A stretch of 64,000 nt of DNA from a virus. A model generated the notes under the pieces. The model searched no databases and was not told the origin of the DNA. It saw only the letters and a list, made by a program, of their open reading frames with translations. The translations under genes and the position numbers were made by a program. The DNA lies in the IMG/VR virus record IMGVR_UViG_3300050821_005889, one strand, 5' to 3'. This document shows positions 1 through 46,916 of this stretch, piece by piece (position 1 is the stretch's first letter; the number at the start of each line of letters is the position of its first letter).

Positions 1-823
1 TTTCATAAACCCCGTCAGGGTTCACATACACTACACTGTGCCACGGGCTGCGTGTGGCCTTTGGACTACGTATCAATTGGAAGGAATATTTTTTCCCGTT
101 ATTAATACTGTTGTGCATAGATAGCCTTACGCTATCCTTAAACTCATGGGCTATAAGGGCAGAGTATGCTTCATTGCGTAACATCATTTCACGGGTCAGC
201 AACTTTGCCGCCTTGTGTAATTGGTTACGGGATGGAAATTCTTTGACCGCCAGCTCTTCTTCCATGAATATAGACATTCCCCTGTACAGGTAATTAACGT
301 CCGGCTCCATCAGGATGCGGCGCTCTAACTCTACAGGTGTGATGCCGAATTGCTCCACTACCTTAGCCCTCATGTTGGCAAGGTGTCCTTGTCCTCCGTA
401 GAAGTCTCTAAGGTCATACCAGCGAATAGGGGCTACTTTGGCAAGGTCTATTGACCTCTGCTCATAGTCTTCTACTGTGGTGTCTGATATGCCCAGCAGG
501 TCTGAGAATATAAAGCCATCACTTACGATGGAGATATTCACGCCCGGAGGGTATATCTTTTTGATTGCATCGTTGAACTGCCCGAAGTTTTTCAGTGACA
601 GCTCTTCGCCCAGGTCAGGCAGTGTTCCTATTACCTTGTTCCTGGTATTAGCCGATTTCATCGGGTATCCCAGCATGACAAACGGAATAGGTTCCCCTGT
701 TGTGACCTTTGAGTTTATCTTGTCGGCAAGTACCTGCTTGCCTACGGTCTCAAATTGGTCAATGGGCGTGGGTGGCATCCTAAAGTCCCGGAACGCCTCC
801 ACAATTGATTCTGTTGTGTTCAT
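1..823 (-). CDS. Isonitrile (isocyanide) synthase family protein, PvcA/IsnA/DIT1-like; C-terminal end runs off the window
   Basis: Own translation from ATG at 823-821: MNTTESIVEAFRDF...GEPIPFVMLGYPMKSANTRNKVIGTLPDLGEE...IYPPGVNISIVSDGFIFSDLLGISDTTVEDYEQ...VRLSMHNS...RSPWH. These blocks match the conserved cores I recall for the DIT1_PvcA family (xFPxKSxNxxKVLGxxPDxxE; YPPGAxIxIxSDGxVFxDL; RLSIH; TPWH). Absent from the ORF track because it has no stop inside the window. Confidence 0.7.
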   Translation of the reverse strand, partial: MNTTESIVEAFRDFRMPPTPIDQFETVGKQVLADKINSKVTTGEPIPFVMLGYPMKSANTRNKVIGTLPDLGEELSLKNFGQFNDAIKKIYPPGVNISIVSDGFIFSDLLGISDTTVEDYEQRSIDLAKVAPIRWYDLRDFYGGQGHLANMRAKVVEQFGITPVELERRILMEPDVNYLYRGMSIFMEEELAVKEFPSRNQLHKAAKLLTREMMLRNEAYSALIAHEFKDSVRLSMHNSINNGKKYSFQLIRSPKATRSPWHSVVYVNPDGVYE

Positions 824-851
824 TTAGTATTACAGTTTAGTTAGTAGTTTT

Positions 852-1799
852 TTATTCAGGTAAAATTATCCTGTCCACCTTACGTTCTATGTTATGGAAC
901 TTAAGGAACGTGCGGGCAGCAGGCTCATTGAGTTTAAGCAGAACCAAAGGGTCTTTGCGGTACTCCGGGTCAAGCAGTAGCTGGTTGGTTCCGGCAGGGA
1001 TTGTTATGGTCTGAGGGCGCAATCCGTGTGGCTTGGTGACAGGTTCCCCTTCAATGATAATGTAGTGCATGCCCAGTTCGGGTACGTTATTGCTTTTAAC
1101 CAGAACCACATCTCCTATCTGCAACCGCGCGGCATGTTCTTCACTGATTCGCACCACATCTTTTTTAGTCAATCGCACCTTGTCATCAAACAATTCAAGA
1201 TTAAAAGGAGAGCTCATTAGCTTTGCCGTATCCACATCAGATACAAAGTGCAGTGTGGTACTTGGCAGCAGCGTGACAGCAGAATGTATTAACATCTTGC
1301 CGTCTGCGGGAGTGTGATAAAAGTTAGTATAGACTCCTTCTGTGACAATATCCGTCCTTACATACCTTACGGTATTTTTGAAAGGGTCAGTGCGGTGAAA
1401 TACGCTGGAAAGAATCTTTCCTGAAATGAGCGCTTCCAACTGATAGGCTTCATCATGGGCATGTATCTGTGATACCAGTCCAGATTTCCACCGTACCATT
1501 GTGTAACGGGCACTCGTCATGTCATCAATGGCCAGCGTGGTACGGTCTAAATTGAACTTCATGTCATCAGACGCCTTCGCCCAATTTTGTTTCTTTAAGG
1601 TCTGCGCCAGTTCGCTGAACATATCAAGGGTTACCGCTCTTTTTCGTTGGGCGTCCTGTCCATCTATTACAGGGGTTTCATTCAGGTAATGTTCATATCC
1701 TGGTCTGTACAGTTTTAGCTGTGCCTCATTGCCCGGAACGCCAGCCGCTATTGTGAGGAGCGGGTTAGTGCTGGCGTGATAATATTTTGTTTCATCCAT
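852..1799 (-). CDS. Hypothetical 315-aa protein; possible double-stranded beta-helix (cupin / Fe-2OG-oxygenase-like) metalloprotein
   Basis: ORF track. Lies 28 nt upstream of the isonitrile synthase gene on the same strand. Contains G-x5-H113-A-H115-D-E...H172, loosely like cupin motif 1 or an HxD/E...H facial triad. The function is inference only. Confidence 0.6.
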   Translation of the reverse strand: MDETKYYHASTNPLLTIAAGVPGNEAQLKLYRPGYEHYLNETPVIDGQDAQRKRAVTLDMFSELAQTLKKQNWAKASDDMKFNLDRTTLAIDDMTSARYTMVRWKSGLVSQIHAHDEAYQLEALISGKILSSVFHRTDPFKNTVRYVRTDIVTEGVYTNFYHTPADGKMLIHSAVTLLPSTTLHFVSDVDTAKLMSSPFNLELFDDKVRLTKKDVVRISEEHAARLQIGDVVLVKSNNVPELGMHYIIIEGEPVTKPHGLRPQTITIPAGTNQLLLDPEYRKDPLVLLKLNEPAARTFLKFHNIERKVDRIILPE

Positions 1800-1803
1800 A
1801 GTA

Positions 1804-1914
1804 GTTATTTATGTTTTGTCTTGCGTTTGAGTTCCCTTTTGTTTTTCACCATGCCTACAAATACCAAGATTACCAGTGAAACCGGTGTGGCAAGGGCAAC
1901 AAAAATGTTCTCCA
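1804..1914 (-). CDS. 36-aa single-TM micro-protein (MENIFVALATPVSLVILVFVGMVKNKRELKRKTKHK)
   Basis: Own translation. Hydrophobic core followed by a basic tail. Fills the gap between two genes. Confidence 0.4.
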
Positions 1915-1922
1915 TAATTATT

Positions 1923-2204
1923 TTATTTTAATTGGTCTTCCAAATCAGCCCGTACATCATATACCAGCACATTCAGCTTGCGCTGAAATTCATGCGTGGT
2001 CTTAGATACGGGTTTGTCGTACATCAGTTCATAAATGAACTTGCCAGCTACAAAAGAGGCGTGCAGGGTGCCTATATGTTTTTGGTGGGCATCCGATACA
2101 GAGTAAACACCCTCTTTAGTAGAGAGGTTAATAGTCAGGTTCTCAAAGTGGAACCCGTCAGTAGTTGTTCCCAGAACGGGAACCTTGTCGGTCAGTAATT
2201 CCAT
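1923..2204 (-). CDS. Hypothetical protein (93 aa)
   Basis: ORF track. Member of the tightly packed leftward array. AAACTACT-ATG leader. Confidence 0.6.
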   Translation of the reverse strand: MELLTDKVPVLGTTTDGFHFENLTINLSTKEGVYSVSDAHQKHIGTLHASFVAGKFIYELMYDKPVSKTTHEFQRKLNVLVYDVRADLEDQLK

Positions 2205-2232
2205 AGTAGTTTGTGTTTTAAATTGTTAGTGA

Positions 2233-2601
2233 TTAGTTGTCTCTTTCAGGATTGCTGCTATTAAGCAGGTTTATCAGAATTTCAAACGGGTCTGTGTGTT
2301 TGGCTGCAATGTTGTGATTGGTTCTTGTTAATACCTGCTCCACTACCCATCCTGCATAAAATGCCTGTTGCGGAGTCATTTTATCAAGCCTTTTAACGGC
2401 TCTGGTGTAAACTTCTTTACGGTTCCCAACTACACCGTCCTTGTACACCGTAGCCGTATCCTCGGAGTCGTCCTCTATGGCTTTTGTTATTTTGTTAGCC
2501 TGCTTCTCGGTGATGCCGATAATAGGAATCACGCTGACTTTGGCTTCCCTGTCCTGCTTGGTAAAATCCTCGCTGGAGTGCTTGTCTTTTTTGTTTGTCA
2601 T
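2233..2601 (-). CDS. Hypothetical protein (122 aa)
   Basis: ORF track, leftward array. GTTTAGTTA box lies 10 nt 5' of the start (read on the plus strand). Confidence 0.6.
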   Translation of the reverse strand: MTNKKDKHSSEDFTKQDREAKVSVIPIIGITEKQANKITKAIEDDSEDTATVYKDGVVGNRKEVYTRAVKRLDKMTPQQAFYAGWVVEQVLTRTNHNIAAKHTDPFEILINLLNSSNPERDN

Positions 2602-2636
2602 TTGAATTTATGTTTAGTTAAATTAAATACCTACGA

Positions 2637-2903
2637 TTAAATGCCTGCTATGTAAACATCCCCGTCCCATGAAATATTCCATCCTTTGTTCCACCACCAT
2701 TTCGTTATGACATAACTACCATTATAAATAAACCAGAGCCTTGTCTCTTCGTGCATTCGGACGCCCTTGATATGGGTCTTATTTTGTTTGATTGCATCAA
2801 GTATAAGCGCCTCAACTCTTGCTATCTCATCTGGATAAGAATTAATGACGGCCTTCTTTACAACTTTAGCAGCCTCGTCTGCGGTTATGAATTTTTCTTT
2901 CAT
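2637..2903 (-). CDS. Hypothetical protein (88 aa), Trp-rich C-terminus
   Basis: ORF track, leftward array. Confidence 0.55.
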   Translation of the reverse strand: MKEKFITADEAAKVVKKAVINSYPDEIARVEALILDAIKQNKTHIKGVRMHEETRLWFIYNGSYVITKWWWNKGWNISWDGDVYIAGI

Positions 2904-2916
2904 GGCATTGTATGTT

Positions 2917-3282
2917 TTATCTTACTTCAATTATTACCTTCTTTGGCATCACATAAAAGTTCTGGTAGTCCTTTTTGTATTCCTCTTCCTGGTCGGCAAG
3001 GAAGACCTGTAGTGCATCATAGATGCGGTCAGATGTGGTATAATCATCCTTCCATACATGGGTGATTTCAAACTTATCGGTAAGGAACTCTGCAAGCCGG
3101 TAAAGGGCTACAGTGCCACCCTCTTCATATTCAGTGTACCCCATGTGGCTACCTGTGATAGCGCCACCCATAAGGTACAGGGTAACTTCATAGTGTACCT
3201 CCTGCCAGCTTGTGAACCCGTTAGGGAAGAATTTGCGGTCAGCCTTAGCTACGCTCTTGATGTAATGTCTGCGGGTGTCCAT
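2917..3282 (-). CDS. Hypothetical protein (121 aa)
   Basis: ORF track, leftward array. Confidence 0.6.
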   Translation of the reverse strand: MDTRRHYIKSVAKADRKFFPNGFTSWQEVHYEVTLYLMGGAITGSHMGYTEYEEGGTVALYRLAEFLTDKFEITHVWKDDYTTSDRIYDALQVFLADQEEEYKKDYQNFYVMPKKVIIEVR

Positions 3283-3286
3283 AGGT

Positions 3287-3592
3287 TTATTTTCTTTTAA
3301 AGAACATTCCTGTAGTTTGAAGTATATTTCTTAATGTCTCGGCAGTATTTTTATTATTGCAGTCTGCAATACATACAAGCCCTTGTCCGGGAATATGGGC
3401 AAATACACTATAAAAAGTAGCCTGCTTTTCTTCTACCTGTTCCTCCCATCTCATAACACCTCCATTTTTACCTTTTATACTTACAGGCTTTCTTAAAACG
3501 TCCATAGGGAAAACTATAAAATCTTCCAGCTTAACACCATGCGGAATCTCTTCGGGATGGAATGTTATCTTGGAATCAAATTTCTTTTTCAT
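3287..3592 (-). CDS. Hypothetical protein (101 aa)
   Basis: ORF track. 4-nt gap to the downstream gene. Confidence 0.6.
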   Translation of the reverse strand: MKKKFDSKITFHPEEIPHGVKLEDFIVFPMDVLRKPVSIKGKNGGVMRWEEQVEEKQATFYSVFAHIPGQGLVCIADCNNKNTAETLRNILQTTGMFFKRK

Positions 3593-3605
3593 ATTTAAAA
3601 TGGTT

Positions 3606-3815
3606 TTATGAATTTATAGGCGAAACTGTTACCCTTACAAAAACCTCATAGGATATATTTTGCTCCCCCTCAGTAATTATACTTTTATCTAATCCTATTC
3701 CAATAAGGTCATTGGTTAGTTGTTCTTTTGACGCCTTGCCAATTAGTTCTTTTTGATAAGGGGACAGTTCATAAAAAATGTCACTGCCGTCTAATTTATA
3801 TTCAAGTGTGAACAT
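3606..3815 (-). CDS. Hypothetical protein (69 aa)
   Basis: ORF track, leftward array. Confidence 0.5.
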   Translation of the reverse strand: MFTLEYKLDGSDIFYELSPYQKELIGKASKEQLTNDLIGIGLDKSIITEGEQNISYEVFVRVTVSPINS

Positions 3816-3828
3816 GGTATTATATTAT

Positions 3829-4008
3829 TTAAAGTAAATCATAAATGTCGCTGGGAGGTACAGAGAGCAGGTCTCCTATACGCTCTGCGGCAGCTCCCGG
3901 CTCTACCTCATGGTAGTCCAGCAGTTGATAGATGGTCTCCCGGTCTTGGGGTGACAGTGGGGCTATAGTTTCTGCTATAGCCTTTACTATCTGGTCGTTT
4001 GGTTTCAT
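3829..4008 (-). CDS. Hypothetical 59-aa protein (MKPNDQIVKAIAETIAPLSPQDRETIYQLLDYHEV...)
   Basis: Own translation; below the ORF-track length cutoff. Fills an otherwise empty 260-nt gap. Confidence 0.45.
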   Translation of the reverse strand: MKPNDQIVKAIAETIAPLSPQDRETIYQLLDYHEVEPGAAAERIGDLLSVPPSDIYDLL

Positions 4009-4078
4009 CTCTTTGGTCTTTTGCGTCTTAGTAACCGTAGTATAAATATTACCACGGCGACAATCAGTATTATAGGCA

Positions 4079-4360
4079 TTATTCTTCTTCCAAAAATCGT
4101 ATCAGGTCTCTCTTGGTTTTAAACAGGTCGGTAACACTACCTATTTCATAGGTCACAGGGTCAATTGGATTAGCTGCCCATTGCAGCACTTTGGGTCTGT
4201 CAAACATATCAGAGAACCCGTAAGTGGAACGGATGAGGTAAGGCTTGCCTTTGATGTCCTGCACCTCATAGCTTTCGTCCTGAGAGAATATTTGGTTGCC
4301 CACAGAGAACCATTTTTTATTATTGGACTTGACTTCGGACAGTGTGAGTAGTGTTATCAT
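4079..4360 (-). CDS. Hypothetical protein (93 aa)
   Basis: ORF track. ATGA-type 4-nt overlap with the upstream gene. Confidence 0.6.
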   Translation of the reverse strand: MITLLTLSEVKSNNKKWFSVGNQIFSQDESYEVQDIKGKPYLIRSTYGFSDMFDRPKVLQWAANPIDPVTYEIGSVTDLFKTKRDLIRFLEEE

Positions 4361-4677
4361 ATCTTATGTTTAAGTTTTATGACACGGATGATAGTATCGT
4401 CGTAGTTGTGCCTTCTGGCTATAATCTTATCTTTATCAAAGTGAATTAGAGTATATCCTTTGTGACGGTATATACCACCGTCCATTTCAATTAAATCTAC
4501 TCTTTCAGAAACGTTAGTAAGGTCAAATTCCTCCTTTGCAGCTCTGGCTAATGGACAATCTTTCCAATCTCCGAAATCGGCATCCTTAAAATGCTTCGCC
4601 CTTACAATGAGAGGCAACGCCCCGATGCTCCATGCCTGCATCCATGTGATGCGCAGGAGCCATAAAAAGTTTCTCAT
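4357..4677 (-). CDS. Small-protein family A, copy 1 (VRAKHF...CPLARA...IIRVIKL)
   Basis: ORF track. Shares an ordered motif set with 4674..5009 and 9024..9278. Confidence 0.65.
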   Translation of the reverse strand: MRNFLWLLRITWMQAWSIGALPLIVRAKHFKDADFGDWKDCPLARAAKEEFDLTNVSERVDLIEMDGGIYRHKGYTLIHFDKDKIIARRHNYDDTIIRVIKLKHKI

Positions 4678-5009
4678 ACCTTAGTTAATTTAATGGTTCG
4701 TATAATATTATCTCCGTAACTAAGCTCGTCTGCGGTAACAGAATCCATTTTAAACAAATGGCTACTATAGTCAGGATGTTTATATGTTACATATAGTCCT
4801 TTGTGATAATCTACCACCATTTCTGTGGTGCTCTCATATACAAGAGTGCCAAAAAATTCTCTTCCTGCTCTTGCTAACGGGCAGTCCGTTGTAGAGCTAA
4901 ATCTTGCCTCCTGAAAATGCCTTGCCCTCACAATAAGGGTAACTTCCGGTAAGGTACGTTTGCCGGTTCCGTTGAACCAGTTCCGTATGGAATCAAATAA
5001 TTTATTCAT
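4674..5009 (-). CDS. Small-protein family A, copy 2 (VRARHF...CPLARA...IIRTIKL)
   Basis: ORF track. Tandem to copy 1 with a 4-nt overlap. Confidence 0.65.
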   Translation of the reverse strand: MNKLFDSIRNWFNGTGKRTLPEVTLIVRARHFQEARFSSTTDCPLARAGREFFGTLVYESTTEMVVDYHKGLYVTYKHPDYSSHLFKMDSVTADELSYGDNIIRTIKLTKV

Positions 5010-5037
5010 AGTTATTAATTTGGTTTTATGCTGTAGT

Positions 5038-5373
5038 TTATGCCGTCAGCAACATAGGGAACAGGCTGGCGGCTATGATGTCGCTTTCTTTATCCACCGC
5101 TTCCTTAAGGGCTTCTATTGACCTTATTTCAAACAGGCGTTTGAGCAATTCTACACCCCTTTCATCCTCCTGCATATATTTTATATACGCTGCGGTGGCC
5201 TTGTCTTCGTCAAGGCTCTCTCTATCCAGCCCCATATCATTCCATTTGTCTGAGACCTTAGCGGATACCTCTGCATTAATGAGGTCTGCGAGTAGTATTA
5301 CAGCAGGAGGTAATCCAGAAAGTTTCTGCATTCTTATAGCGTCTCTGCGCTGTCTTTCCAAATCGTCTTTCAT
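5038..5373 (-). CDS. Hypothetical protein (111 aa); paralog of 5461..5793
   Basis: ORF track. Shared block DE-x-KATAAYIKYMQEDERGVELLKRLFEI versus DDEVADKVNTAFHDYMVDGDRGIKMLHEIIDA. Confidence 0.6.
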   Translation of the reverse strand: MKDDLERQRRDAIRMQKLSGLPPAVILLADLINAEVSAKVSDKWNDMGLDRESLDEDKATAAYIKYMQEDERGVELLKRLFEIRSIEALKEAVDKESDIIAASLFPMLLTA

Positions 5374-5460
5374 AACTGTTTAGTTAGTTTACACGCCCCG
5401 TGTATCCATTCGGCAGCGTGTGCTCACTATCTTGTTCCGGCTTGCAACGGAGTAAACAGT
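5374..5460 (-). repeat. Two-hairpin intergenic element, copy A
   Basis: Contains GTTTAGTTAGTTT, then stem ACACGC(5391-5396)/GCGTGT(5416-5421), then GTGTGCTCACTAT, then stem TCCG(5436-5439)/CGGA(5448-5451) with an 8-nt loop. Same block order as 8152-8231. Confidence 0.55.
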
Positions 5461-5793
5461 TTAGGCAGCTACTTTAGCAACCATGTAGTCCACAATGGTT
5501 TTCACTTCCTTGTCCAATACAACCTGGTGGTCTTGTGCGTCAATGATTTCATGAAGCATCTTGATGCCACGGTCTCCGTCAACCATGTAGTCATGGAAAG
5601 CGGTGTTCACTTTGTCGGCAACTTCATCATCATCGGTGTTAACCCCTTTGGCCTTTAAGGCAGAAGTAACAGCAGGTGCGGCAGATGCCATAAGTACCTG
5701 TTGTGTCATACCCATCATTACGTCAGTAAGTGGATTGCTCTGGTTGTCGCCAGTGGTAGTATCAGTACCAGTGGTGTTCTTTTTTGTTCTCAT
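5461..5793 (-). CDS. Hypothetical protein (110 aa); paralog of 5038..5373
   Basis: ORF track; see 5038..5373. Confidence 0.6.
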   Translation of the reverse strand: MRTKKNTTGTDTTTGDNQSNPLTDVMMGMTQQVLMASAAPAVTSALKAKGVNTDDDEVADKVNTAFHDYMVDGDRGIKMLHEIIDAQDHQVVLDKEVKTIVDYMVAKVAA

Positions 5794-5903
5794 TTTTGTA
5801 AAATTTAATTAGTGATAAAAAAATATGGTTCGTGTTCCTCCTGTTTTGACACGCGGCACCATAAGCACACAGGCAATCTGCGTCCTTTAAAACAACAATA
5901 TCA

Positions 5904-6155
5904 TTAGACGTCGTACCTGAACAAATCGCCTATCGTCCGTATAAATGGAGCCACACCAAAGGCGTGTAAGGTATTGGATGCAATATGAGCGCCGGGGGTG
6001 TTCCAGTAGAACTCCACCGCCATCCCTGCTGCAATAAATATCATCCCTATAGACAGATGTCTCATGCGACAATGTATCTGTCGTACTTTGTCTTTAGGCT
6101 GCCCTCTTACGTCAGCCCTGTGCCTGTTTGGCGGTTTGCTCTTGCGTCTCATCAT
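5904..6155 (-). CDS. Hypothetical membrane protein (83 aa)
   Basis: ORF track. Basic N-terminus followed by a hydrophobic stretch IGMIFIAAGMAVEFYW. Preferred over the overlapping 5887..6072 frame. ATTTAGTTAGT box lies 5' of the start. Confidence 0.45.
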   Translation of the reverse strand: MMRRKSKPPNRHRADVRGQPKDKVRQIHCRMRHLSIGMIFIAAGMAVEFYWNTPGAHIASNTLHAFGVAPFIRTIGDLFRYDV

Positions 6156-6181
6156 TTTAGATTTAGTTAGTGTATCACCAT

Positions 6182-6352
6182 TTATTTAAGGTGTTTCTTT
6201 ATAGTTGCTTCAATGCGTTTGGCGGCAAGGAACTTTGCCTGCTTGTCCAGTTTGCCAATGCTGGAAAGGGTTAGTTCCATTGACGTCAGCGTCCATTTAA
6301 GCTGCGCGTTAAGGTCAGAGACTTTAAGGGAATTGATTAAATCGGTGTGCAT
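6182..6352 (-). CDS. Hypothetical 56-aa protein (MHTDLINSLKVSDLNAQLKW...)
   Basis: Own translation; below the ORF-track cutoff. Fills a gap in the array. Confidence 0.4.
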   Translation of the reverse strand: MHTDLINSLKVSDLNAQLKWTLTSMELTLSSIGKLDKQAKFLAAKRIEATIKKHLK

Positions 6353-6358
6353 GGTATA

Positions 6359-6568
6359 TTAAATATTAGTTTGCTCGTCTAAATATTCCCCATATTCAAT
6401 AGGGAAATAAATCTGAATATCCTTCAATATTAAAGCATCATTGGATTGTGGCAGAATAATAGTATGTCTCAGCCACACTTTAATCTCAGCACTTTCCTGC
6501 TCGGTGCAATCTATGTCTCTTTTCTTTCGTTCTATTATTGCAATAAGCTCTTCGTCGTTAGATTCCAT
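6359..6568 (-). CDS. Hypothetical protein (69 aa from MESNDEEL)
   Basis: ORF track frame. I prefer the internal ATG at 6568 because it is preceded by ACTACTAAACTAAAT and by the stop of an upstream micro-ORF. Confidence 0.5.
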   Translation of the reverse strand: MESNDEELIAIIERKKRDIDCTEQESAEIKVWLRHTIILPQSNDALILKDIQIYFPIEYGEYLDEQTNI

Positions 6569-6578
6569 ATAATTTAGT

Positions 6579-6680
6579 TTAGTAGTACCACCAGTAAGGG
6601 AATTGTTTGATGTCATCCCACAACCACATCCATGTCAGTACGGAAAGGGTTATCAGGATGACGATTGCGAGGGTGAACAT
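6579..6680 (-). CDS. 33-aa single-TM micro-protein (MFTLAIVILITLSVLTWMWLWDD...)
   Basis: Own translation. Tight packing. Confidence 0.4.
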   Translation of the reverse strand: MFTLAIVILITLSVLTWMWLWDDIKQFPYWWYY

Positions 6681-6683
6681 AAT

Positions 6684-6782
6684 TTATATTCCTTTAGTAA
6701 GTCCTCCGTGTTTGAAGAACCTGCGGATGAATTTTTTAATGCGCTCCTTGCGTCTTTTCTTGCGGCTGTATAAGGGTTTCAT
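6684..6782 (-). CDS. 32-aa highly basic micro-protein (MKPLYSRKKRRKERIKKFIRRFFKHGG...)
   Basis: Own translation. Starts 1 nt after the upstream stop. Confidence 0.35.
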   Translation of the reverse strand: MKPLYSRKKRRKERIKKFIRRFFKHGGLTKGI

Positions 6783-6783
6783 A

Positions 6784-7119
6784 TTATGATTTTAATGACC
6801 TTTGGAATGCTTTGTCGTCACACAGTTCGGCAGCAAGGCACAGGATAGTGGAGCGGAGTTTGTACCCTTCGGCGTTCTTGTCTGCCCAGAAGCCACCGGG
6901 CATATAATCTGGCTTTGATATATTTAATTCAGGAAGATTTTTTGCGTTTATGGGTTCTGAGATAGCTGAGTGATATAACCTTTTTCCTATGGCTGCACAC
7001 ATTCCTATTTCGTGGTCGTATAAATCAATATTATTAAGCTCCTCCGTCTTTTCAATCTCTTCCACCAAAGAGAGATACAATTTTTTACGTTGACGCGGTG
7101 TTTTAATTTTTTGTAACAT
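6784..7119 (-). CDS. Hypothetical protein (111 aa from MLQKIKTPRQ)
   Basis: ORF track frame. Start moved to the ATG at 7119 so that it does not overlap 7131..7550. Confidence 0.55.
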   Translation of the reverse strand: MLQKIKTPRQRKKLYLSLVEEIEKTEELNNIDLYDHEIGMCAAIGKRLYHSAISEPINAKNLPELNISKPDYMPGGFWADKNAEGYKLRSTILCLAAELCDDKAFQRSLKS

Positions 7120-7130
7120 AGATTTATGAT

Positions 7131-7550
7131 TTAGTATGCCTTGTCTATTCCGGCATCCCTTGCCCTTTGGGTTGCAAGTGCATCCCAATTGGTTTCACCT
7201 TCGTTATCTGTAGTTTCATTAAGCCCTTGCTCATTCTCTGCTTCGAGGTAGGCGCGTTTGCAGGCATCCTGTAGTTCATTAAGCAGGTCTGCTTTGCGTC
7301 CTGTGACCTTATCAGAGAAGCCGGAGACGTTCAATGCACCTCTTATTCCACCTCCCAGATAGTTGACGTATGCGCCAAAATGATGGGGTAAATAGTTGGG
7401 GTCGACGTCAAAGGCAGTAGCCACATCGGAGCCGTTAAAGCCCAATGTGCCACCCCTGTATCCTATGTCGTAGGACAAAGCGCCTATCTCCAATGCCTCA
7501 AGGTCTGCAATAGATTGCACCTTGCGCAATTGTTTGATGTTATATTTCAT
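7131..7550 (-). CDS. Hypothetical protein (139 aa)
   Basis: ORF track, leftward array. Confidence 0.6.
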   Translation of the reverse strand: MKYNIKQLRKVQSIADLEALEIGALSYDIGYRGGTLGFNGSDVATAFDVDPNYLPHHFGAYVNYLGGGIRGALNVSGFSDKVTGRKADLLNELQDACKRAYLEAENEQGLNETTDNEGETNWDALATQRARDAGIDKAY

Positions 7551-7552
7551 AG

Positions 7553-7769
7553 TTAGTCCCTGTTAATTACTTTGATAGTATAACCGTATTTTGCGAAAAG
7601 GTCGGTAAGGAGTTCTATCTTTTTGTCGATGGTAGTGTTTTCGTCATCCAAGGCCACCAAAGCCCCAGCCGTTGTTACTGTTATAGGGTTCTGTTTTGGT
7701 TGCTTTTTTAACAGCAAGATTACGTACCTCCTTGAGTTCCTCAGAGGGAGGTGTCCAGTGCATACTCAT
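7553..7769 (-). pseudogene. Small gene with an apparent frame break near 7645-7655
   Basis: Own translation. MSMHWTPPSEELKEVRNLAVKKATKTEPYNSNNGWGFGGLG stops at 7644. A protein-like continuation DENTTIDKKIELLTDLFAKYGYTIKVINRD runs in the +1 frame and stops 2 nt before the next gene. Confidence 0.3.
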
Positions 7770-7908
7770 GATTTCTCCTTTTTGTCTTTTAGGCAATATT
7801 TGCAATATCCGCCTACATCTCCTTTATGACCTTTTCAAAAAGGGCACCCGTTATTCTTTTATGGATAACAGGTGCCTCGAATAGTGTAGCCTGCATAGGT
7901 CTTAAGGA

Positions 7909-8151
7909 TTACAAGCTCCTGGCATAAGATAGTGCCTGTGAATAGGTAGCGTCTGCAACCTGTTTAACAGGTGCACTGAAAGGAACCACCGGAACGTGTT
8001 TTGCTTTTTTAGCCCTCTTGCATTTGGGCTTTGACTCCGGTATGTCATAGGGCATAAAGCAGGTTTTGTCTTTTACGTAGGGTTTGGGTTTCCTATCGTA
8101 CTTCTCGTTGAACGCGGGAGCGCGCAGTTCATTTTCAGTTAAGTTTCTCAT
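7909..8151 (-). CDS. Hypothetical basic protein (80 aa)
   Basis: ORF track. ACTAACTAAAC box lies 10 nt 5' of the start. Confidence 0.55.
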   Translation of the reverse strand: MRNLTENELRAPAFNEKYDRKPKPYVKDKTCFMPYDIPESKPKCKRAKKAKHVPVVPFSAPVKQVADATYSQALSYARSL

Positions 8152-8824: not shown

Positions 8825-9024
8825 ATACCCATGAATTTAGCGCCTTGCCTGCTCATTTGCTTTGCCTCTCCAATGGTTTGCTTTGTTAAAGCCCTCCATG
8901 AATGAGGTTGCAGGGGTAGTATTGTGTACATAGCGTACATTTTGGCCTGTTGATTGATACCACGTCTTGTGATAGCCCTTAATGTCATAAGGGTGCGACA
9001 GGTAATAAAGAATTGTGTTTCCAT
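8821..9024 (-). CDS. Hypothetical protein (67 aa)
   Basis: ORF track. Overlapping start and stop codons. Confidence 0.5.
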   Translation of the reverse strand: METQFFITCRTLMTLRAITRRGINQQAKMYAMYTILPLQPHSWRALTKQTIGEAKQMSRQGAKFMGI

Positions 9025-9278
9025 TAGGTTAGTTTTAGTGTTCTTATGACTTTATTGGAGTAGTGCAGTTTTTTGGCTTTTGCTTTATCTTTGTTAAATA
9101 CATCATTATCGTATCTCATGTTAAGACTATGATATACGTCTGCTATTCGTACAATATCAACCCCCGCTCTTGTGTACTTGCCTGTTAGTTCTCTTGCCGC
9201 TTTGTCAATTGCGCACCCATGTTCGGGGTCATAAAAGTCTGTACCTTTAAAATGCTTTGCTTTCAGTTGTAGTTTCAT
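9024..9278 (-). CDS. Small-protein family A, copy 3 (KAKHF...CAIDKAA...VIRTLKL)
   Basis: ORF track. Same motif order as 4357..4677 and 4674..5009. Confidence 0.6.
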   Translation of the reverse strand: MKLQLKAKHFKGTDFYDPEHGCAIDKAARELTGKYTRAGVDIVRIADVYHSLNMRYDNDVFNKDKAKAKKLHYSNKVIRTLKLT

Positions 9279-9459: not shown

Positions 9460-9801
9460 TTAGTTTATGTAATTAGATTTATTGAGTTTAGGTAATAGTC
9501 CAACGGGATAAGAATCAAAGGATTGCAAGGCACCTGCGAGGGAATTAAGCCCTTTGGATATGCGCATAGCATAGCGCTCCAAATGGAACACACCTTTACT
9601 ATCTTGCCACAGTACCCATTTGCCCGAACGTCCGTTATTGACGCGGGTATGAGTAGTCACACGGGCAACGTTAGCCCTCTTTGATTTAGGTATATTTCGG
9701 TATATACCTACATTGTGTTGAATGTCCATAAATGTAAAAATTAGCATAACAGGCGCGGTTTGACCGTAGTTACTATATGCTTCTATGCCGAATCTTATCA
9801 C
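9460..9801 (-). CDS. Hypothetical protein (113 aa); first gene of the leftward block
   Basis: ORF track. GTG start, so the start position is uncertain. Confidence 0.5.
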   Translation of the reverse strand: MIRFGIEAYSNYGQTAPVMLIFTFMDIQHNVGIYRNIPKSKRANVARVTTHTRVNNGRSGKWVLWQDSKGVFHLERYAMRISKGLNSLAGALQSFDSYPVGLLPKLNKSNYIN

Positions 9802-10423
9802 GGGAGTATCTTGACAATTAACTAAGAATAGTTAACCATGTATAGAAGGTATTTAACAGCCTGTTACGTCTGACTTTATTTATTCCGTTACGGGTGGAAG
9901 GTGAATATATCGACCTTTTAACCTACCTTTGGTTATTGCGCGTTCGGTGGAATCGGACTTGCTTATCCCCTACATTGTGGAACTTAGTTCCTTGCGGCCT
10001 TTTTGCTCTTTATCCTATATACAAGGTATATAGACTTATTACAGTAACGGGAAACGTCCGAAACGAGGCACCCGCTTTGAAACCGTATATTTAGTAGTTA
10101 AGAAAAGGATAGGTACATTTGTAAGCTATTTAACCGCCCTCTTAATGTCCGTTATCATAGTCGAACGATGCAAACATAGTATAGGGAGGTGTACAAAAAG
10201 TAGTACAATAAGTTAGAATGATATATTTAATCGACTAACGGAATAATATAATCGACGAACGTATATATAAATCAGTTAAGCCATATAAGGCACAAAACAC
10301 AAAACAGATCAAAAATGAGGTTTCCGGTATATTAGACAAGGTGTATAGAAGAATGGAATAGCATTAACCATGCCAAACATATTAAAACTTATGCGTCCTA
10401 TATACAGTACAGTGTGTGAATAA

Positions 10424-10891
10424 GTTACCTACCTAATGGCAGGCAGGTACCTATATATTAGTACTCACTTATAATCCCAATACACACAAAGGACTACCCA
10501 TTTTCTACGTCCAAAGGACTACCCCGAAAGCGCTACCATGTGCCACAACAAACCAGCTACCTACAAAAGGGTAACCACAAAGTTACTCATGTATGACAAA
10601 GTGGCAGGATGTAGGAAGGAAAGGAAGGGTAACCTTTTCCCCCTATGTTCCACGTGAAACAGGTTACCTAATTCCTTGTAACCCAATGAGTTACCCAATT
10701 ATAGGTAGTGTTTCACACGTGGTTACCAATGACCTGTTAGACATTTATGACTACCCATAAATAGGTAGGACATGACATAATGTCAGGTAGCCGAAAAGGA
10801 GTAGCCATGACATGGTAGGGCACACAAAAAAAAGAAGTACCCCGAAAGGACTACCCCCACAGGAACCACTTTACCCCTCCCCCCGGTAGCC
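10424..10891. repeat. Array of about 24 short TACC/GGTA-core boxes in both orientations
   Basis: GGACTACCC at 10491, 10516 and 10848 (GACTACCC also at 10749). GGGTAACC at 10569 and 10627. GGTTACC at 10662 and 10721. GGTACC at 10446. ATAGGTAG at 10701 and 10761. CCGAAA(A)G linkers occur 3 times. Confidence 0.7.
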
Positions 10892-11324
10892 GGGGTGGGA
10901 TATAGGAGTATCGGACTCCCGGACAGGGACATGAGCCTTACTCCCTCATAGCCTCCCACCCATTCATGCACCTTCCTTATCCTTCCTTGAGGGTCACAAG
11001 CCTTTTCATTGACGCAGGGCTGTCATAACCTTTCCATATCCCGGCACACCTACGGTAAAGGACACCTTACCCCCTGCAGGGGTACCTGGGGGTCACACAA
11101 GGACGTATAGGGGTCATGGGTATTGAGATGGACAGAAGCAAATCACCTGTGCCCAGGTCGTCTGTAAGGGGACGTAGGAGGGGAATAGAAAAGGATATTG
11201 TCTCTATTATTGTAGCTAAGAGACGAAACCTCATAAAGTATTGATTATCAGTATAGGTCAGTTCAATCGAACTTGATTTTTGTTCAATAGTTCTGAACAA
11301 GTTTGATGTTAGTAACTATTTTAA

Positions 11325-11332
11325 TAGTTTTG
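11325..11332 (+). promoter_or_regulatory. Bacteroidota-type -7 box TAGTTTTG
   Basis: Matches TAnnTTTG. Lies 20 nt upstream of the ATG at 11353. Flanked by three GTTCAAT repeats (11259-11346). Confidence 0.4.
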
Positions 11333-11352
11333 GTATAGTTCAATAATATTGT

Positions 11353-11949
11353 ATGATGATTAGTAATAAATACAGCACAAAGCCGGTATATGTGAATAAT
11401 CCATTTTCTAAGGAAGCAGTTAGTTCTTTTAAATCGGACTGGATAGATTACAGGGAGAAAGGAGTAAGGATGATAGTAGAGGAGACCGGAGAGGTTATGG
11501 ACTTTAAAAAGCCGGAAAGCAGCGTCCAGGTCTTTGAGGATACAGCAAGGTTTGTTAAGTTCTATGCAGGCTTCGGGGAGCAGTTCCGTAAACTAAAAGA
11601 AAGCGGTCAGAGCATCTTCTGGTTTATATTTCTTAAACGCCTTAAGCGCAACAGGGACTTTGTGTATATAGACATGGCTGAATGCGTAGCGTACTGCGGA
11701 TGGAAAAGCAAGACCGGGTTCTACACCGGGCTGTGTGACCTCATTGAACATGATTTCATTGCTAAAAAAGCGCAGGAGGAAAACTGTTTCTTTATTAATA
11801 TCACCCTGTTCTTCAATGGTAGCCGCAAACACTTACAGGTGTTCAGGGATTGGGTAACAGCAGAGAAAGCTAAGGTTCCGCCGGAAGTAAATAAATTACA
11901 AGATAAAAATACAGGTGGGCAATTGGAATCAGAGAAGGGGGGTGAGTGA
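11353..11949 (+). CDS. Putative winged-helix DNA-binding protein (candidate origin/iteron binder); paralog of 15501..15830
   Basis: ORF track. C-terminal block DFVYIDMAECVAYCGWKSKTGFYTGLCDLIEHDFIAKK...CFFINITLFFNG aligns with DYVELKAPKVMKSTGIKSNETYYRSLKTLMERGYIARS...TYFINLNKMFI. Adjacent to the box array. Confidence 0.6.
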   Translation: MMISNKYSTKPVYVNNPFSKEAVSSFKSDWIDYREKGVRMIVEETGEVMDFKKPESSVQVFEDTARFVKFYAGFGEQFRKLKESGQSIFWFIFLKRLKRNRDFVYIDMAECVAYCGWKSKTGFYTGLCDLIEHDFIAKKAQEENCFFINITLFFNGSRKHLQVFRDWVTAEKAKVPPEVNKLQDKNTGGQLESEKGGE

Positions 11950-14895: not shown

Positions 14896-15504
14896 ATGAA
14901 AGCACTAAGACGAAAAGACAATAAAGAATGGGTTGTTTTTAGTGACGCCGGATTCTTTGTATCTAAGTATCCAGATTCGCTTGCGGACGAAGCTACTATG
15001 GAAGGCATTAAAGAATACATAGAAGTATTAGGAGAGCCACTTAGCCAGGAGCTTATTGAATCTCTTGAGCAATACGAAATAGTGGATGTGGAGTTTTGGG
15101 TGCCTGCGGATAACCCGGTACCGGATAGTATTGAAGGAGACATACGAAGCAATCAGGATGAACTACTATTTAAGGGTTACACAAAAATGCCTGTGTATGA
15201 CAAGAAAGCAGATGATGAAAAATCAATGCTTGACATATTGTTGAAGTGGCTTGCGGATGCCAGTGCTTTTGGTTTTGGAAAAGTTCTTATATCGTTTGAC
15301 TCAAAGGATAAGGCTGAAAAATTCAGAACTACACTTAAACAGGAGTTCAAACCTATACGAACACACAAAACTAAAGGTGACGATGTTATGGTTCATGGAC
15401 TTGATAGCCTTTGGTTTGGTAGAGTTGTATTATATTATCCTAATGACAGCGAATGTGACGACCAGATTATTGAAGGAGACATACGAAACGAAATACATCT
15501 ATGA
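14896..15504 (+). CDS. Hypothetical protein (202 aa) with duplicated IEGDIR motif
   Basis: ORF track. A 20-nt exact direct repeat sits at 15129-15148 and 15468-15487, in the same frame. Confidence 0.6.
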   Translation: MKALRRKDNKEWVVFSDAGFFVSKYPDSLADEATMEGIKEYIEVLGEPLSQELIESLEQYEIVDVEFWVPADNPVPDSIEGDIRSNQDELLFKGYTKMPVYDKKADDEKSMLDILLKWLADASAFGFGKVLISFDSKDKAEKFRTTLKQEFKPIRTHKTKGDDVMVHGLDSLWFGRVVLYYPNDSECDDQIIEGDIRNEIHL

Positions 15505-15830
15505 CCATCGGCGACAGTCCATTTAATTATTCTAAATCGCCATCACAGGCCGCAGCATTGCCTAACTCACGCAAGTTGGAAGACCTGTTTTTCAAAGGCT
15601 ACTTCACTATGAAGCCATCCGCCAAAGATGTCCTGATGTATATTGTTGGGGTATTACCTGCTGGTAAGGACTATGTAGAACTCAAGGCTCCAAAGGTCAT
15701 GAAGTCCACCGGCATCAAATCCAATGAGACCTATTACCGCAGCCTTAAGACCCTCATGGAAAGGGGGTATATTGCCAGGTCGCTAAAGCAGGGGACTTAC
15801 TTCATTAACCTCAATAAAATGTTTATATGA
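15501..15830 (+). CDS. Putative winged-helix DNA-binding protein; paralog of the 11353..11949 C-terminal domain
   Basis: ORF track; see 11353..11949. Confidence 0.6.
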   Translation: MTIGDSPFNYSKSPSQAAALPNSRKLEDLFFKGYFTMKPSAKDVLMYIVGVLPAGKDYVELKAPKVMKSTGIKSNETYYRSLKTLMERGYIARSLKQGTYFINLNKMFI

Positions 15831-15994
15831 TAGCTGTTATTTTGTCTGTAGTCAGCTTAGTACTAAGTGTGTATAGTCTTTTATCGGCATTAAAAAATAA
15901 AAACAAATGATGGGCTGGCATAATTTTATTACAATCGTTGTAATGATAATTTTATTGTCCCTGTTCCTGGGAGCATACCTTAATAAAAAAGACG

Positions 15995-16660
15995 ATGATG
16001 AACAAGATAACCCTTAACGACAAAGTGTTTATAGAGATTCCTATAGCGTTGTGTACTAATGAACAACTTGATTTCAATGAAGGATTTCATCCTGTAACAG
16101 TAGTTGAAAATAATCGCAAGACCTTTCACTGGGCAAGATATAATGGTGCTAACTGGCATTCAGATACCACCGGGGCGCATGTTATACCTATTTGTATATA
16201 TATACCCGAAGACATGGTTCCAATAGAGCTTAAGGAAGAGCCGTCACAGCAGGAAATAGAATCCGGTCTTATGTTTGGAATTATTCAACCTGTACCTATC
16301 CGGCTTAAGGCGTATGATAAGAAGAATAAAATTATATCCCAGGTGCTGTGTGTGAACTGGGAAGATAAATTTATGACAGTGCGAAGCGGGGCGAGGGGAG
16401 CTATATTGAGGCCGCTCCACGAAATGCACATCTTAAGGATGAGTGAGTTTTTTGATTGCAATGATACAGAGTGTAAAGAGCTTGATGTGGTAGAGGTGCC
16501 GGAGCCACGGCATCTTACACGGATTATAACTTATCATAAGACCGGGGAATGGAGGCTTGCCGATAAGCGTGGCAGGAGCCAGCGTATATTTCAGAAAGAT
16601 TGGAAAGGACTTAAAATAATAGGGCACTATCTCATTAACAAGGAGGAACTAAAAGATTAA
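15995..16660 (+). CDS. Hypothetical protein (221 aa)
   Basis: ORF track. Confidence 0.6.
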   Translation: MMNKITLNDKVFIEIPIALCTNEQLDFNEGFHPVTVVENNRKTFHWARYNGANWHSDTTGAHVIPICIYIPEDMVPIELKEEPSQQEIESGLMFGIIQPVPIRLKAYDKKNKIISQVLCVNWEDKFMTVRSGARGAILRPLHEMHILRMSEFFDCNDTECKELDVVEVPEPRHLTRIITYHKTGEWRLADKRGRSQRIFQKDWKGLKIIGHYLINKEELKD

Positions 16661-24008: not shown

Positions 24009-27000
24009 ATGAAACCTGTAAAATTTTCAGAAGAAGTCTGCGTATTCAGCAATGGTATAGGCTATACGGTTGATGCTGAGTACCTGGGTCTAATTACAGG
24101 TAAACGTTACTATGACGCACTCAACATCCGTCTTCGGCAAAAGTCCGGTGTCAACTCAGGTGTCCCGGTTGCCATCAACGGAGAGCAGCTTAAGTATCCA
24201 TTGATTGTTCCTTATCACCTGGGGGGTGGGGGCTTTACCAGCGAGTGTATTGCCAACGCCTTCCTTCCCGCTCAACTATCCTATAAGTGTATCCTTGCCA
24301 CAATGGTACAAGGACACCTGTTTGAGATATGGGCAGATAAGGACAGAATCCTTCCTACATTTTTCAGGGCGGACGGTCATGTTGTTGCCGGTGGAAATGG
24401 GAATCACACTATACCATTCTCTGTTGATTATCCTATACAATATTCTACAAACAATACACCTCTTGGCGGAGAAATTTTTCTTACCGATAACCATGTGGTT
24501 CCGCAGATATATGTAATAAGCGACATGCTTATCAATTCTGGTATTGACCTTGCCTCCGGCATTCGCACAGGGGCATGTACTGATAAATACTTTGCATCTT
24601 ACAACTACACAGATTATTCTATCAATACTGCCACACAGGCAGACCATCCTGTTTTTATAGAACTTGCAACTGCACAACCGGCAGGAAGTATTATACTTGG
24701 AACCAGTGGGCTGTTCCCCGGAACCTATCAGTATTCTATTCAATACGTGGACTCACAAGGCAATACTACAGACTGGAGTGAACCTACACCAAATATCCCG
24801 GTAATAGCTAATATAGATTCAGCAAACAGTAATACTTTTCCTTATTTACAGATGGTTGGAGCAGCGCCACAGCCGCTTGCCACAGAAGGTATAGGAATTG
24901 GTATTCATATCCGTTTCAGGGTCACAAACATTAATAACTACAGCAGCATGAATATAAGACGGGTTGCTTATAATTCAGGTTCGCCTATAGGAACACAAGG
25001 CACAGAGACTATTGTTTATCAATTTAATATTACGGCAGGCCAAATAGGCATTGTAGATATATTTGATTTTGGGGCTACAGGAACATCACTTACCGTAAGC
25101 GCACAAAGAACAACGCAGGCGGTAATAGAGACAGCTAAAGGAATCCGGTACTATGACCGCACTCTTTATCTTGCTAATATTAATTATGCTTCCAGGGATG
25201 TAAGTGGTGTGACGTTTTTAACGTCCCCTGACACGGCATGGCCTGTGATGAAAAATATCGGAACCATTGGACATCACGACCCGTACAATTCTGTTTATTA
25301 TAAACACTTCATGAACCGGGAGCGTTATGGTTTTGGAGTAAAGTATATAGATGGATTTAATACCCAATCTTTTGTAGGAGCTTTTCCGGGCGCTGGCAAC
25401 CCAACCAATTACGGAGGAGCGTTTAATAATTATATGATGCCCAACCGCAGGGATACAGCTACTTCTATAAACAACTATAGCCAGGATGGGACTACAGTAA
25501 CAGTAACAGCATCCGATGTAACCAATACGCCCAATCCTACATTTGAAATATTTGACATGAGTAATGCGGCATCAAAGAATGATACCATTACCTATAAAAA
25601 TATATTTGCCACCGCATCTTCTTTTAATGTTAAGCCCACGAGCCAGATTACTATGTATAATGCCAATATAGGTGCCGGGGCTGTAAGCGGAAGTAATGTT
25701 GTTGCTCCGTATTATCCATTCACCCCCAAGAATGAGAACGACCCTGATGTATCGGGGCATAACTTTGTGGTTAACACTGCGGTTTATACCGGCATAGATA
25801 GTTTTGGGAACCCATTATCAAAAATATCACTACTCAGCACCCCGGCTTATCAACCGAAAGGGTTTGCACAACAGTATCTTACAATGGGAATGTCTATGGC
25901 TGGACTTGCTAATATTCCATCATGGGTTTCTGCATTCTCTATACAGGTAACCCCTCCCGCCGGAAGAGTGGTAACACAGGGGATAGCATTCTATTCCCTT
26001 AATGAAAATCCAACAACCCCAGGAGCAAGCGGAGCTACCAAAGACACCGATAAGATAGTATTCTACTCTCCTGATGCCGAGACAGGACTTACGCTCATGC
26101 AGGATATTATAGACAATCCAAGTATATACAGCGTGGAGTTTATTTGCCCTCTTGGTTCATTCAGTGAAGTATATAGTTTTCGTATAGCGCAGGATGGAAT
26201 TAATTTCAGTGTACCTACATCTTACGCCGGGTACAATGTTGACATGGTTAATTATGCCAGGGTTTATTACGATAATTCTTTAATCAATACGGACGGGTTG
26301 ACCCAAATTGGCAACGGTGACGGGTATGTTAATTTTGGCAGGTTTAGAAACGTTGCCTCTGCTGGCGGGTCTGTAGCAAACATTTTTAATAACTCCAATC
26401 CTGGCAATGCACAGGTAGGGGTAACAGGAGCTACTGCTGTAACTACTAAATCAGGCAGGCAAACATTCTATAAGATTCAATTAGATGCACCTCTATACAG
26501 TACCGGCTCTCCCGGAAGTAATATAGACGCTGCTTATGGAACAACTAATCTAAAGAGGTTCACAGAGCCTTTTTATATTGTTAACATAGTTCGCAAGGAT
26601 GCTGTTGTTGACACTTCTGTTAACCAGACACAATATGTTTCAACAGGGCACTATCAGAAAATATCATCTATCATAGGTCAATCAAACGGTGCCGCAAAGC
26701 AATCATTTTTGCTGGTAGACGAAAATCCAGGAGACTGCATTGTAAAAAACGGGACGGATATAAAATACATCTGGATAGAAGACATTAACGGGAACCAGTT
26801 GCCGTGGGTAAATATTTCTATGGCAGGAACGGGGTCTTTTACACTGGCTAATATATTTGGAGATATAGCTAATGGTACCAATAACTCAGGAGCTAACCCA
26901 ACCAATATATTAGCAGGAGTTTATTCCCAATCCATTACGCAGGTGAATGGCCTGGATAGATTTTATACTATAATATTTGAATCCATACCGGGACAGAACC

Positions 27001-45243: not shown

Positions 45244-45723
45244 CTATTTTCTACCATGCTCCTTTCTATGACAATCTATACAGAGTATAAGTAAATCGCC
45301 TGGCTCCTCTTTAAAAATTCTATCGTACGTTAAATGATGTATATGTAAATACCTTCTATCGCAAGATTTGCCGCAGCGCTGACAAACTTCACCCCTTTCA
45401 GCTAATAGCCTTAGCCTTATATTTCGCCATTCTTTACTCTTAAGGTAATCGTGATATTCTTTCTTATATGCCGCTATTTCCTTTTTAGTCCTTCCCTTGA
45501 AGCCCCTTACTGAATCAGGGTTAATATTTTTCTCGTTTCTATAAAAATCAATAAACCACCGCTTAGGACTTCCGTGAATCTGATACCCGTACATTTCTGC
45601 AAAGGCTATTATCAAAACATTCTGTTTCGACATTGGATATACTACATAGCCACCCTTGCGTAAATGACTAATAAGATACCTTCTCGCCTCGTTTAAAAAC
45701 CGTAAATTAGCTCTTTTTCCCAT
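45244..45723 (-). CDS. HNH endonuclease
   Basis: ORF track. CQRCG...LHIHHLTY...LLILCIDCHRKEH, a CxxC...HH...CxxCH HNH core. Confidence 0.7.
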   Translation of the reverse strand: MGKRANLRFLNEARRYLISHLRKGGYVVYPMSKQNVLIIAFAEMYGYQIHGSPKRWFIDFYRNEKNINPDSVRGFKGRTKKEIAAYKKEYHDYLKSKEWRNIRLRLLAERGEVCQRCGKSCDRRYLHIHHLTYDRIFKEEPGDLLILCIDCHRKEHGRK

Positions 45724-46805: not shown

Positions 46806-46916
46806 CAACTAAACTAAAAACGAATGTGGGAACGATTCAGACACAGGTGGTTCAGACGACATCACCATCACAAACATCACTTAGTATTCAAATTAATTCA
46901 CAAACATAATAATCAC

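Follow-up and report, generated by a model that had tools for sequence, protein, structure and literature searches.

A phage gene cassette linking a DIT1_PvcA-family isonitrile synthase to a predicted thiol-dioxygenase-type cupin

Genes at the locus

We describe a group of adjoining genes at the start of a 64,000-nucleotide (nt) stretch of viral DNA, IMG/VR virus record IMGVR_UViG_3300050821_005889 (hereafter the window, at its full length). The first 1,799 positions hold, on the minus strand, most of a gene of the isonitrile-synthase family (gene B) and, directly upstream of it, a gene for a two-domain protein (gene A). A third gene (gene C) follows just past window position 1 and is given here by its coordinates on L001, a public contig that codes for an identical protein A. 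Isonitriles are rare, reactive groups in natural products of bacteria, fungi and sponges, where they bind metals, inhibit enzymes and act as virulence factors. Isonitrile synthesis is not known from phages, and small-molecule biosynthesis by phages is uncommon in general. In the cassette described here, a familiar enzyme family appears with new partners, in a viral carrier new to it. Its features are as follows.

1..823, minus strand: gene B, DIT1_PvcA (IsnA/PvcA) isonitrile-synthase family; codons 1-274 of 300 lie within the window
824..851, minus strand: spacer between genes A and B, 28 nt, A/T-rich, with no Shine-Dalgarno-like motif; sequence AAAACTACTAACTAAACTGTAATACTAA
852..1799, minus strand: gene A, a 315-residue protein with a predicted cupin and a novel C-terminal domain, assigned from an AlphaFold2 model and from homologues upstream of the synthase
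1230..1550, minus strand: residues ~84-190 of gene A, predicted three-histidine cupin barrel of the cysteine dioxygenase (CDO) type, from profile, Foldseek and Pfam evidence
1461-1463, 1455-1457, 1284-1286 and 1248-1250, minus strand: cupin codons for H113, H115, H172 and H184, respectively
855..1187, minus strand: residues ~205-315 of gene A, a novel synthase-associated domain that adjoins the synthase even without the cupin and also occurs in fusions
L001:11892-12242, just past window position 1: gene C, third cassette gene, coding for 103-120 residues across loci (~110)

A sequence-only reading of the window had recognised isonitrile-synthase hallmarks in the minus-strand open reading frame (ORF) that starts at 823. 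Indeed, the 274-codon translation of 1..823 is stop-free and contains all four blocks, FVMLGYPMKSANTRNKVIGTLPDLGEE at residue 48, YPPGVNISIVSDGFIFSDL at residue 91, RLSMHNS at 233 and SPWH at 259; a further 26 codons and the stop follow past window position 1. This fragment matches the Pfam family DIT1_PvcA (PF05141) at E=1e-62 and 212.6 bits over profile positions 1-255 of 273, exceeding the gathering score of 26.4 bits and confirming the proposed family. The complete protein of 300 residues (L001:10977-11879) matches the PvcA structure 3e59 in the PDB end to end (E=4.7e-28, ~30% identity) and the IsnA-family structures 9dhm and 9dh4 at E~5e-28. The automatic annotation of the Joint Genome Institute (JGI) likewise labels the synthase "pyoverdine/dityrosine biosynthesis protein Dit1". 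The same protein falls far below the cut-off of the NCBIfam PvcA equivalog NF045653 (108.2 bits against 600), so gene B is a family member and not a PvcA orthologue, and specificity for tyrosine is not to be assumed.

The patterns of conservation within the phage synthase clade also bear on activity and specificity. Eighty-eight positions are at least 90% conserved in this clade, and 41 of them are identical in both PvcA (3e59) and 9dhm. Every polar residue of the hallmark motifs falls among the 41. Residues kept in gene B and common to the two reference structures are K56, S57, N59, K63, D70, E73, D102, Y120 and R152, and similarly Y180, K207, R216, R233, S235, H237, K245, W261 and H262. Other invariant residues belong to the phage clade itself: N217, E218, Y220 and S221, which replace S, W, W and G of PvcA and 9dhm, and further N241, Q249 and H277. 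The replacements at 217-221 suggest a substrate other than the usual tyrosine or tryptophan, and the conservation as a whole argues for an intact and presumably active enzyme whose amine substrate would differ from that of its relatives.

Gene A lies 28 nt upstream of the synthase, with H113, H115, D116, E117 and H172 where the sequence-only reading had placed them. Its family comprises 201 clusters at 50% identity when 1.84 billion representative proteins are searched exhaustively with HMMER; this search was used for A after a word-indexed one had proved insensitive (2 matches for A, 9 for C). Most members have 300-340 residues, and stand-alone N-terminal and C-terminal halves also occur. Across a 73-member alignment G127 is invariant and R86, W104, H113, H115, E122, R145, H172, H184, H245 and H302 are at least 90% conserved. 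The AlphaFold2 model built from this alignment reaches a pLDDT of 94.1 and a pTM of 0.90; it replaced a prediction from a two-sequence alignment that was unusable (pLDDT 31.5).

Several comparisons place the N-terminal half of protein A near the thiol dioxygenases. The best 20 matches of the family profile in the PDB are all cysteine dioxygenases (top E=8e-6), and the profile alignment sets H113, H115, H172 and H184 on CDO H86, H88, H140 and H155, with the S/T-L that precedes H184 on CDO Ser153-Leu154. Pfam CDO_I (PF05995) matches 27 of the 73 relatives weakly, with a best E of 4.8e-5, and PCO_ADO (PF07847) matches nine. When the whole model is compared with the PDB by Foldseek, the top matches are almost all thiol dioxygenases and span ~150 residues. 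The best is B. subtilis CDO (4qm9; E=2.7e-8, probability 1.00, TM(target) 0.64), and others are mercaptosuccinate and 3-mercaptopropionate dioxygenases, mammalian CDO, plant cysteine oxidases (PCO) and SbzM. A structure search of BFVD returned generic cupins only, and protein A has no family in PHROGs, NCBIfam or Pfam. As modelled, the N-terminal half is a double-stranded beta-helix of the three-histidine thiol-dioxygenase type and not an iron/2-oxoglutarate (Fe/2OG) enzyme, and its putative iron site is borne out to the extent that it aligns with a known one. The metal-site partner suggested by the sequence-only reading therefore stands as a cupin with H113, H115 and H172 on the iron ligands of CDO (pLDDT 94), and falls as an Fe/2OG-type oxygenase. 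Similarly, the pairing known from isn/pvc clusters is retained insofar as an oxygenase-like protein adjoins the synthase, but not in its partner, as TauD or 2OG-Fe(II) Pfam matches are absent from six window proteins and from the called genes of six fetched loci.

The C-terminal domain of protein A and protein C are two further components. In the domain, H245, K256 and R261 are conserved family-wide, G229 and H302 in the full-length proteins and H258 in the nearest relatives; in two proteins, P0066 and P0228, the domain and the synthase form one chain, with the domain at the N-terminal end. Profile searches against the PDB and Pfam gave no match for the domain and none for protein C, and hhalign detected no relationship between the two. 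Protein C was also considered as a substrate to be modified, and this idea was dropped because the family has no conserved Lys or Cys.

Recurrence of the cassette and its phage setting

The order A-B-C is found in all 21 distinct informative loci, as mapped by BLAST and hidden Markov models (HMMs). Each of these loci was retrieved via one gene only, either via B or via A or its C-terminal domain, and all loci examined have a homologue of gene A directly upstream of the synthase. In the loci fetched via A or its C-terminal domain, B and C follow directly downstream wherever the flank suffices; L027 is too short to judge. The cupin half of A is missing in L005/6, L007, L010 and L014. The constant core is thus the C-terminal domain of A with B and C, while the cupin is frequent and optional; it is the C-terminal domain that invariably accompanies the synthase. 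We further note some variants of this arrangement, namely an additional stand-alone copy of the C-terminal domain in L028 (749-1120), an ORF of 251 residues between B and C in L008 (4894-5646), a truncated synthase fused to protein C in L024 (928-1644) and a synthase without its N-terminal half in L012 (3911-4519).

Among 5.8 billion proteins searched, 296 synthase homologues were found at E<=1e-10. The best 120 of these 296 are 52-61% identical and have ~300 residues, except for two with N-terminal extensions, and many homologues lie on contigs of 40-170 kb. Genomic contexts were sampled via the synthase, through exact protein look-ups and IMG/VR viral contigs of 33-125 kb, and consist of arrays of small unannotated genes with HNH, RecT, holin, DNA polymerase A and T4 Y07C genes. 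The phages that carry the cassette are represented by contigs of 41-134 kb or more with 33-48% G+C, IMG/VR viral contigs of 41-125 kb among them. The cassette therefore recurs in about twenty otherwise unrelated uncultured phages, and such tight conservation across diverse phages implies a selected function in infection. This recurrence suggests that these viruses make their own reactive small molecule during infection.

Known phages and cellular genomes yielded little. The synthase has no tblastn match in 50,697 GenBank phages and no family in PHROGs. A scan of 185,579 species genomes, made via a narrower alignment of A, gave a single match, on a phage-like contig binned in a Neisseriaceae metagenome-assembled genome. 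A peptide-pattern scan of the same genomes for the synthase clade returned no relative, with a pattern that needs D where the window gene has N62 and that the window gene itself would escape. Both scans used narrow patterns, so the absence of the cassette from cellular genomes is provisional. A literature search of 8 million full texts, with subscription journals outside the collection, found no paper on a phage-encoded isonitrile synthase or on a pairing of CDO with isonitrile synthesis.

Gene B touches the window edge, and bacteria and fungi are the other known sources of isonitrile synthases, as would suit a chimera made in assembly or a prophage end joined to a bacterial gene cluster. This explanation is effectively refuted by the DNA beyond position 1. 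The Logan contig SRR7094548 (72,070 bp) continues there for 8.25 kb with more small co-directional phage-like genes, and its end overlaps window 63854-64000. The ENA contig ERZ27253562 (72,060 bp), which is differently permuted, has the same gene order through the junction and runs unbroken from the synthase through the 8.25 kb to the window genes at 62140-62880 and 57908-60361. Two independent assemblies thus rejoin the window at its far end, which makes the genome circular or circularly permuted, at ~72.1 kb. The concerns about a chimera or a prophage end that the sequence-only reading had raised are therefore not borne out, and its statement that no tRNA or integrase marks a host boundary holds. 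The only tRNA in the window is a tRNA-Met (CAT) at 46733-46806 on the plus strand, neither the Pfam-scanned ORFs nor the precomputed Pfam matches of the flank include an integrase, and no host flank was found around the genome. The genes around the cassette are small, co-directional and on the minus strand. The exact sequence of protein A is present on four contigs of 50-200 kb, and the recurrence of the cassette in about 20 other phage contigs likewise argues against an assembly artefact.

This is a complete phage genome of ~72.1 kb that has not been described before, and its lifestyle is probably virulent. Of ~30 ORFs with at least 150 residues, only two have a significant family in Pfam or PHROGs. 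These are the portal gene at 48455-50686 (P22_portal, 58.8 bits against a cut-off of 26.1; also phrog_156) and an HNH endonuclease gene at 45244-45723. Capsid and terminase genes were not recognised among the scanned window ORFs, the genome being too divergent, and megablast of window 1-8000 against the 50,697 GenBank phages gave no match. The sole match of the portal in those phages is the crAss-like phage cr10_1, at 24.6% identity. Shine-Dalgarno-like motifs precede only 4 of 76 window genes, and other cassette-bearing phages (L002-L015) have 0-3 such motifs per locus. The near absence of these motifs, together with the crAss-like portal match, suggests hosts with Bacteroidota-type translation initiation.

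The layout of the genome shows further features. Window 9747-11353, ~1.6 kb almost without coding, divides a leftward block of small genes from a rightward block of large genes and probably acts as an origin or as a divergent promoter region; the cassette lies ~8 kb downstream of it within the leftward block. The same block holds three paralogous small genes on the minus strand (4357-4677, 4674-5009 and 9024-9278; ~85-111 residues, 27-39% identity), two of which are in tandem with overlapping stop and start codons. On the plus strand, giant ORFs at 24009-29117 and 31674-36950 code for 1702 and 1758 residues and have no Pfam family and one faint PHROG match with a function-less label. The tRNA-Met gene is flanked by a minus-strand block, which ends near 45.2 kb, and by the plus-strand block with the portal gene. 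The label of an early-gene array, which the sequence-only reading gave to the region of the cassette, draws on gene size and layout and is best taken as provisional.

Accessory genes are also found close to the cassette. In this phage they are a ParB_N/GmrSD_N-like gene and a DUF7873 gene past window position 1 (L001:14721-15467 and 15493-16302), and an ORF of 266 residues at the corresponding place in L013 (8431-9228) resembles the DUF7873 protein by eye. Other phages have NAMPT, or a phosphoribosyltransferase with a LOG-like gene, near the cassette (L002:10056-11471; L005:5165-6593). By analogy, these genes are reminiscent of anti-defence or nucleotide-salvage islands. Such neighbours, the position among small accessory genes and the fact that two of the four cassette modules have no known fold would be compatible with a cassette that acts on an amino group of hypermodified phage DNA, of a nucleotide signal or of a protein, and releases no free metabolite. 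We consider this a very slim possibility. None of the loci has a hydroxymethylase, kinase, glycosyltransferase or aminoacyl transferase of DNA hypermodification beside the cassette, protein C offers no conserved Lys or Cys as a site of modification, and all characterised members of the family that we know of (IsnA, PvcA and Dit1) act on free amino acids.

Proposed pathway and alternatives

On balance we find it probable that window 1..1799 and the next gene form a phage-specific biosynthetic cassette, in which an isonitrile derived from an amino acid is made, tailored by the cupin and used inside the infected cell. The formation of an isonitrile from an amino acid and ribulose-5-phosphate is established IsnA/PvcA chemistry, and gene B would, like its characterised relatives, produce an alpha-isocyano acid by condensing ribulose-5-phosphate with the alpha-amino group of an amino acid. 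The C-terminal domain of A may be an obligate accessory subunit of the synthase, following the logic of the MbtH-like proteins that partner adenylation domains of non-ribosomal peptide synthetases. The cupin, tethered beside the synthase, would bind Fe(II) and fill the role of IsnB/PvcB by tailoring the labile, carboxylate-bearing product with O2; this step would be dispensable, given that several phages lack the cupin. Protein C could be a further subunit or a protective binder. The most likely product of the cassette is an amino-acid-derived isonitrile (or formamide) that the iron cupin tailors oxidatively.

The isonitrile, as a strong metal ligand and a precursor of electrophiles, might serve, within the infected cell, to knock out a host metalloenzyme or a defence function. 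This host-disabling role is the least supported step of the explanation. The fuller proposal, a multi-component pathway exclusive to phages (the novel accessory domain, a divergent synthase and protein C, often with the tethered cupin) that uses a new cupin reaction to deliver a non-canonical isonitrile warhead in what are probably Bacteroidota cells, poisoning a host metalloenzyme or immune function, is one that we put forward tentatively and hold to be possible, not probable.

A number of observations weigh against the proposed pathway. The substrate of gene B is not deducible from its low score against the PvcA equivalog, and exclusivity to phages is provisional, coming as it does from narrow peptide patterns. 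The roles given to the C-terminal domain and to protein C, which are without recognisable fold relatives, are conjecture, and early timing and a biological target are speculative. For the cupin, the window protein has no CDO_I match at E<=1 and does not reach the gathering score, which speaks against plain membership of the CDO family. The register of CDO Tyr157 is occupied by V or L in the protein A family, which has a Tyr or Phe one position earlier, and the window copy lacks the loop motif EHTRDGRDN, which about half of the family has. The alignment also lacks an equivalent of CDO Cys93. Judged by the unreached Pfam thresholds and the missing counterparts of Tyr157 and Cys93, the cupin is not a bona fide CDO. 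The closest relatives of this cupin oxidise thiols, not isonitriles, and the cupin could instead act ahead of the synthase.

In that reversed order the cupin would be a true thiol dioxygenase that makes a sulfinate from cysteine or a related thiol amino acid, and the synthase would convert it to a sulfur-containing isocyano acid. All of the best matches of the cupin are cysteine, 3-mercaptopropionate or mercaptosuccinate dioxygenases, PCO, or SbzM, which uses cysteine. The nearly invariant R86 lies 27 residues ahead of the HxH motif, at the spacing expected for CDO Arg60, although outside the stretch aligned by the HMM; Arg60 is presumably 26 residues ahead of HxH in CDO, and we take the F-x-R-T-I-L...W-G-x-G-x-S-x-x-H-x-H arrangement of protein A to parallel that enzyme. 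Moreover, the synthase clade has lost the tryptophans at 218 and 220 that PvcA and 9dhm share, which fits a non-aromatic substrate. We nevertheless judge the reversed order unlikely, as at least four phages keep the synthase, the C-terminal domain and protein C with no cupin within 4-8 kb, so that the step supplying the substrate would need a host source. The window protein's shortfall against CDO_I and the lack of Tyr157 and Cys93 equivalents count against it as well.

A second alternative concerns the stable product. Yeast Dit1, of the same Pfam family, is reported to yield N-formyl-tyrosine and no isonitrile and not to be replaceable by PvcA, and isonitriles are readily hydrolysed to formamides (PMC7345447), all of which weighs against an accumulating isonitrile. 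By this account the phage enzyme would give an N-formyl amino acid, directly or by hydration of the isonitrile. The phage clade, however, is as near to PvcA and 9dhm as to anything known and has the motif residues in common with them, and no Dit2-like P450 is present. We regard a Dit1-like outcome as improbable, somewhat more so than the reversed order.

If the fuller proposal is correct, it would be the first virus-encoded pathway to an isonitrile natural product, with a new type of reaction for thiol-dioxygenase-like cupins that tailors an isocyano acid with O2 and without 2-oxoglutarate. Confirmation of the function would extend the known means of phage takeover by a chemical weapon or tool, tie two new protein families to isonitrile synthesis and show a thiol-dioxygenase-type cupin recruited to this chemistry. 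The divergent synthases, probably with a new substrate specificity, would also be of use in biocatalysis.

Comparison with known systems

The cassette shares features with four known systems. Like the MbtH-like proteins of non-ribosomal peptide synthetases, the C-terminal domain of A is a small domain always encoded beside its partner and sometimes fused to it; the two have no kinship in sequence or known structure, and the likeness is one of genetic pattern alone. Yeast Dit1 and Dit2, which make the N,N'-bisformyl-dityrosine of the spore wall, similarly combine a DIT1_PvcA enzyme with an oxidative tailoring partner. Their oxidative partner, Dit2, is a P450; the pathway yields a formamide (PMC7345447) and belongs to eukaryotic development.

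The thiol dioxygenases (CDO, the 3-mercaptopropionate and mercaptosuccinate dioxygenases, PCO/ADO and the sulfonamide synthase SbzM) are likewise cupins with H-x-H and a distal His. Protein A carries the W-G-x-G-x-S-x-x-H-x-H motif, an S/T-L-H that matches Ser153-His155 and an Arg at the place expected for Arg60. It differs in its nearly invariant E122 and R145, in its fusion to a novel domain and in its genetic tie to an isonitrile synthase.

The closest counterparts are the bacterial IsnA/PvcA and IsnB/PvcB systems of the rhabduscin, paerucumarin and hapalindole pathways. Gene B belongs to the same Pfam family (PF05141), has the same length of ~300 residues and shares the hallmark motifs and their polar residues, and the phage synthase is also encoded beside an oxygenase-like beta-barrel protein of the non-haem-iron type. 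Unlike those cellular gene clusters, the cassette is borne by phages, and its synthases have residues of their own at 217-221, 241, 249 and 277. The canonical partner is a TauD-type Fe/2OG enzyme, whereas the phage partner is, as predicted here, a three-histidine thiol-dioxygenase-type cupin, and the phage cassette adds two conserved parts, the C-terminal domain of A and protein C.

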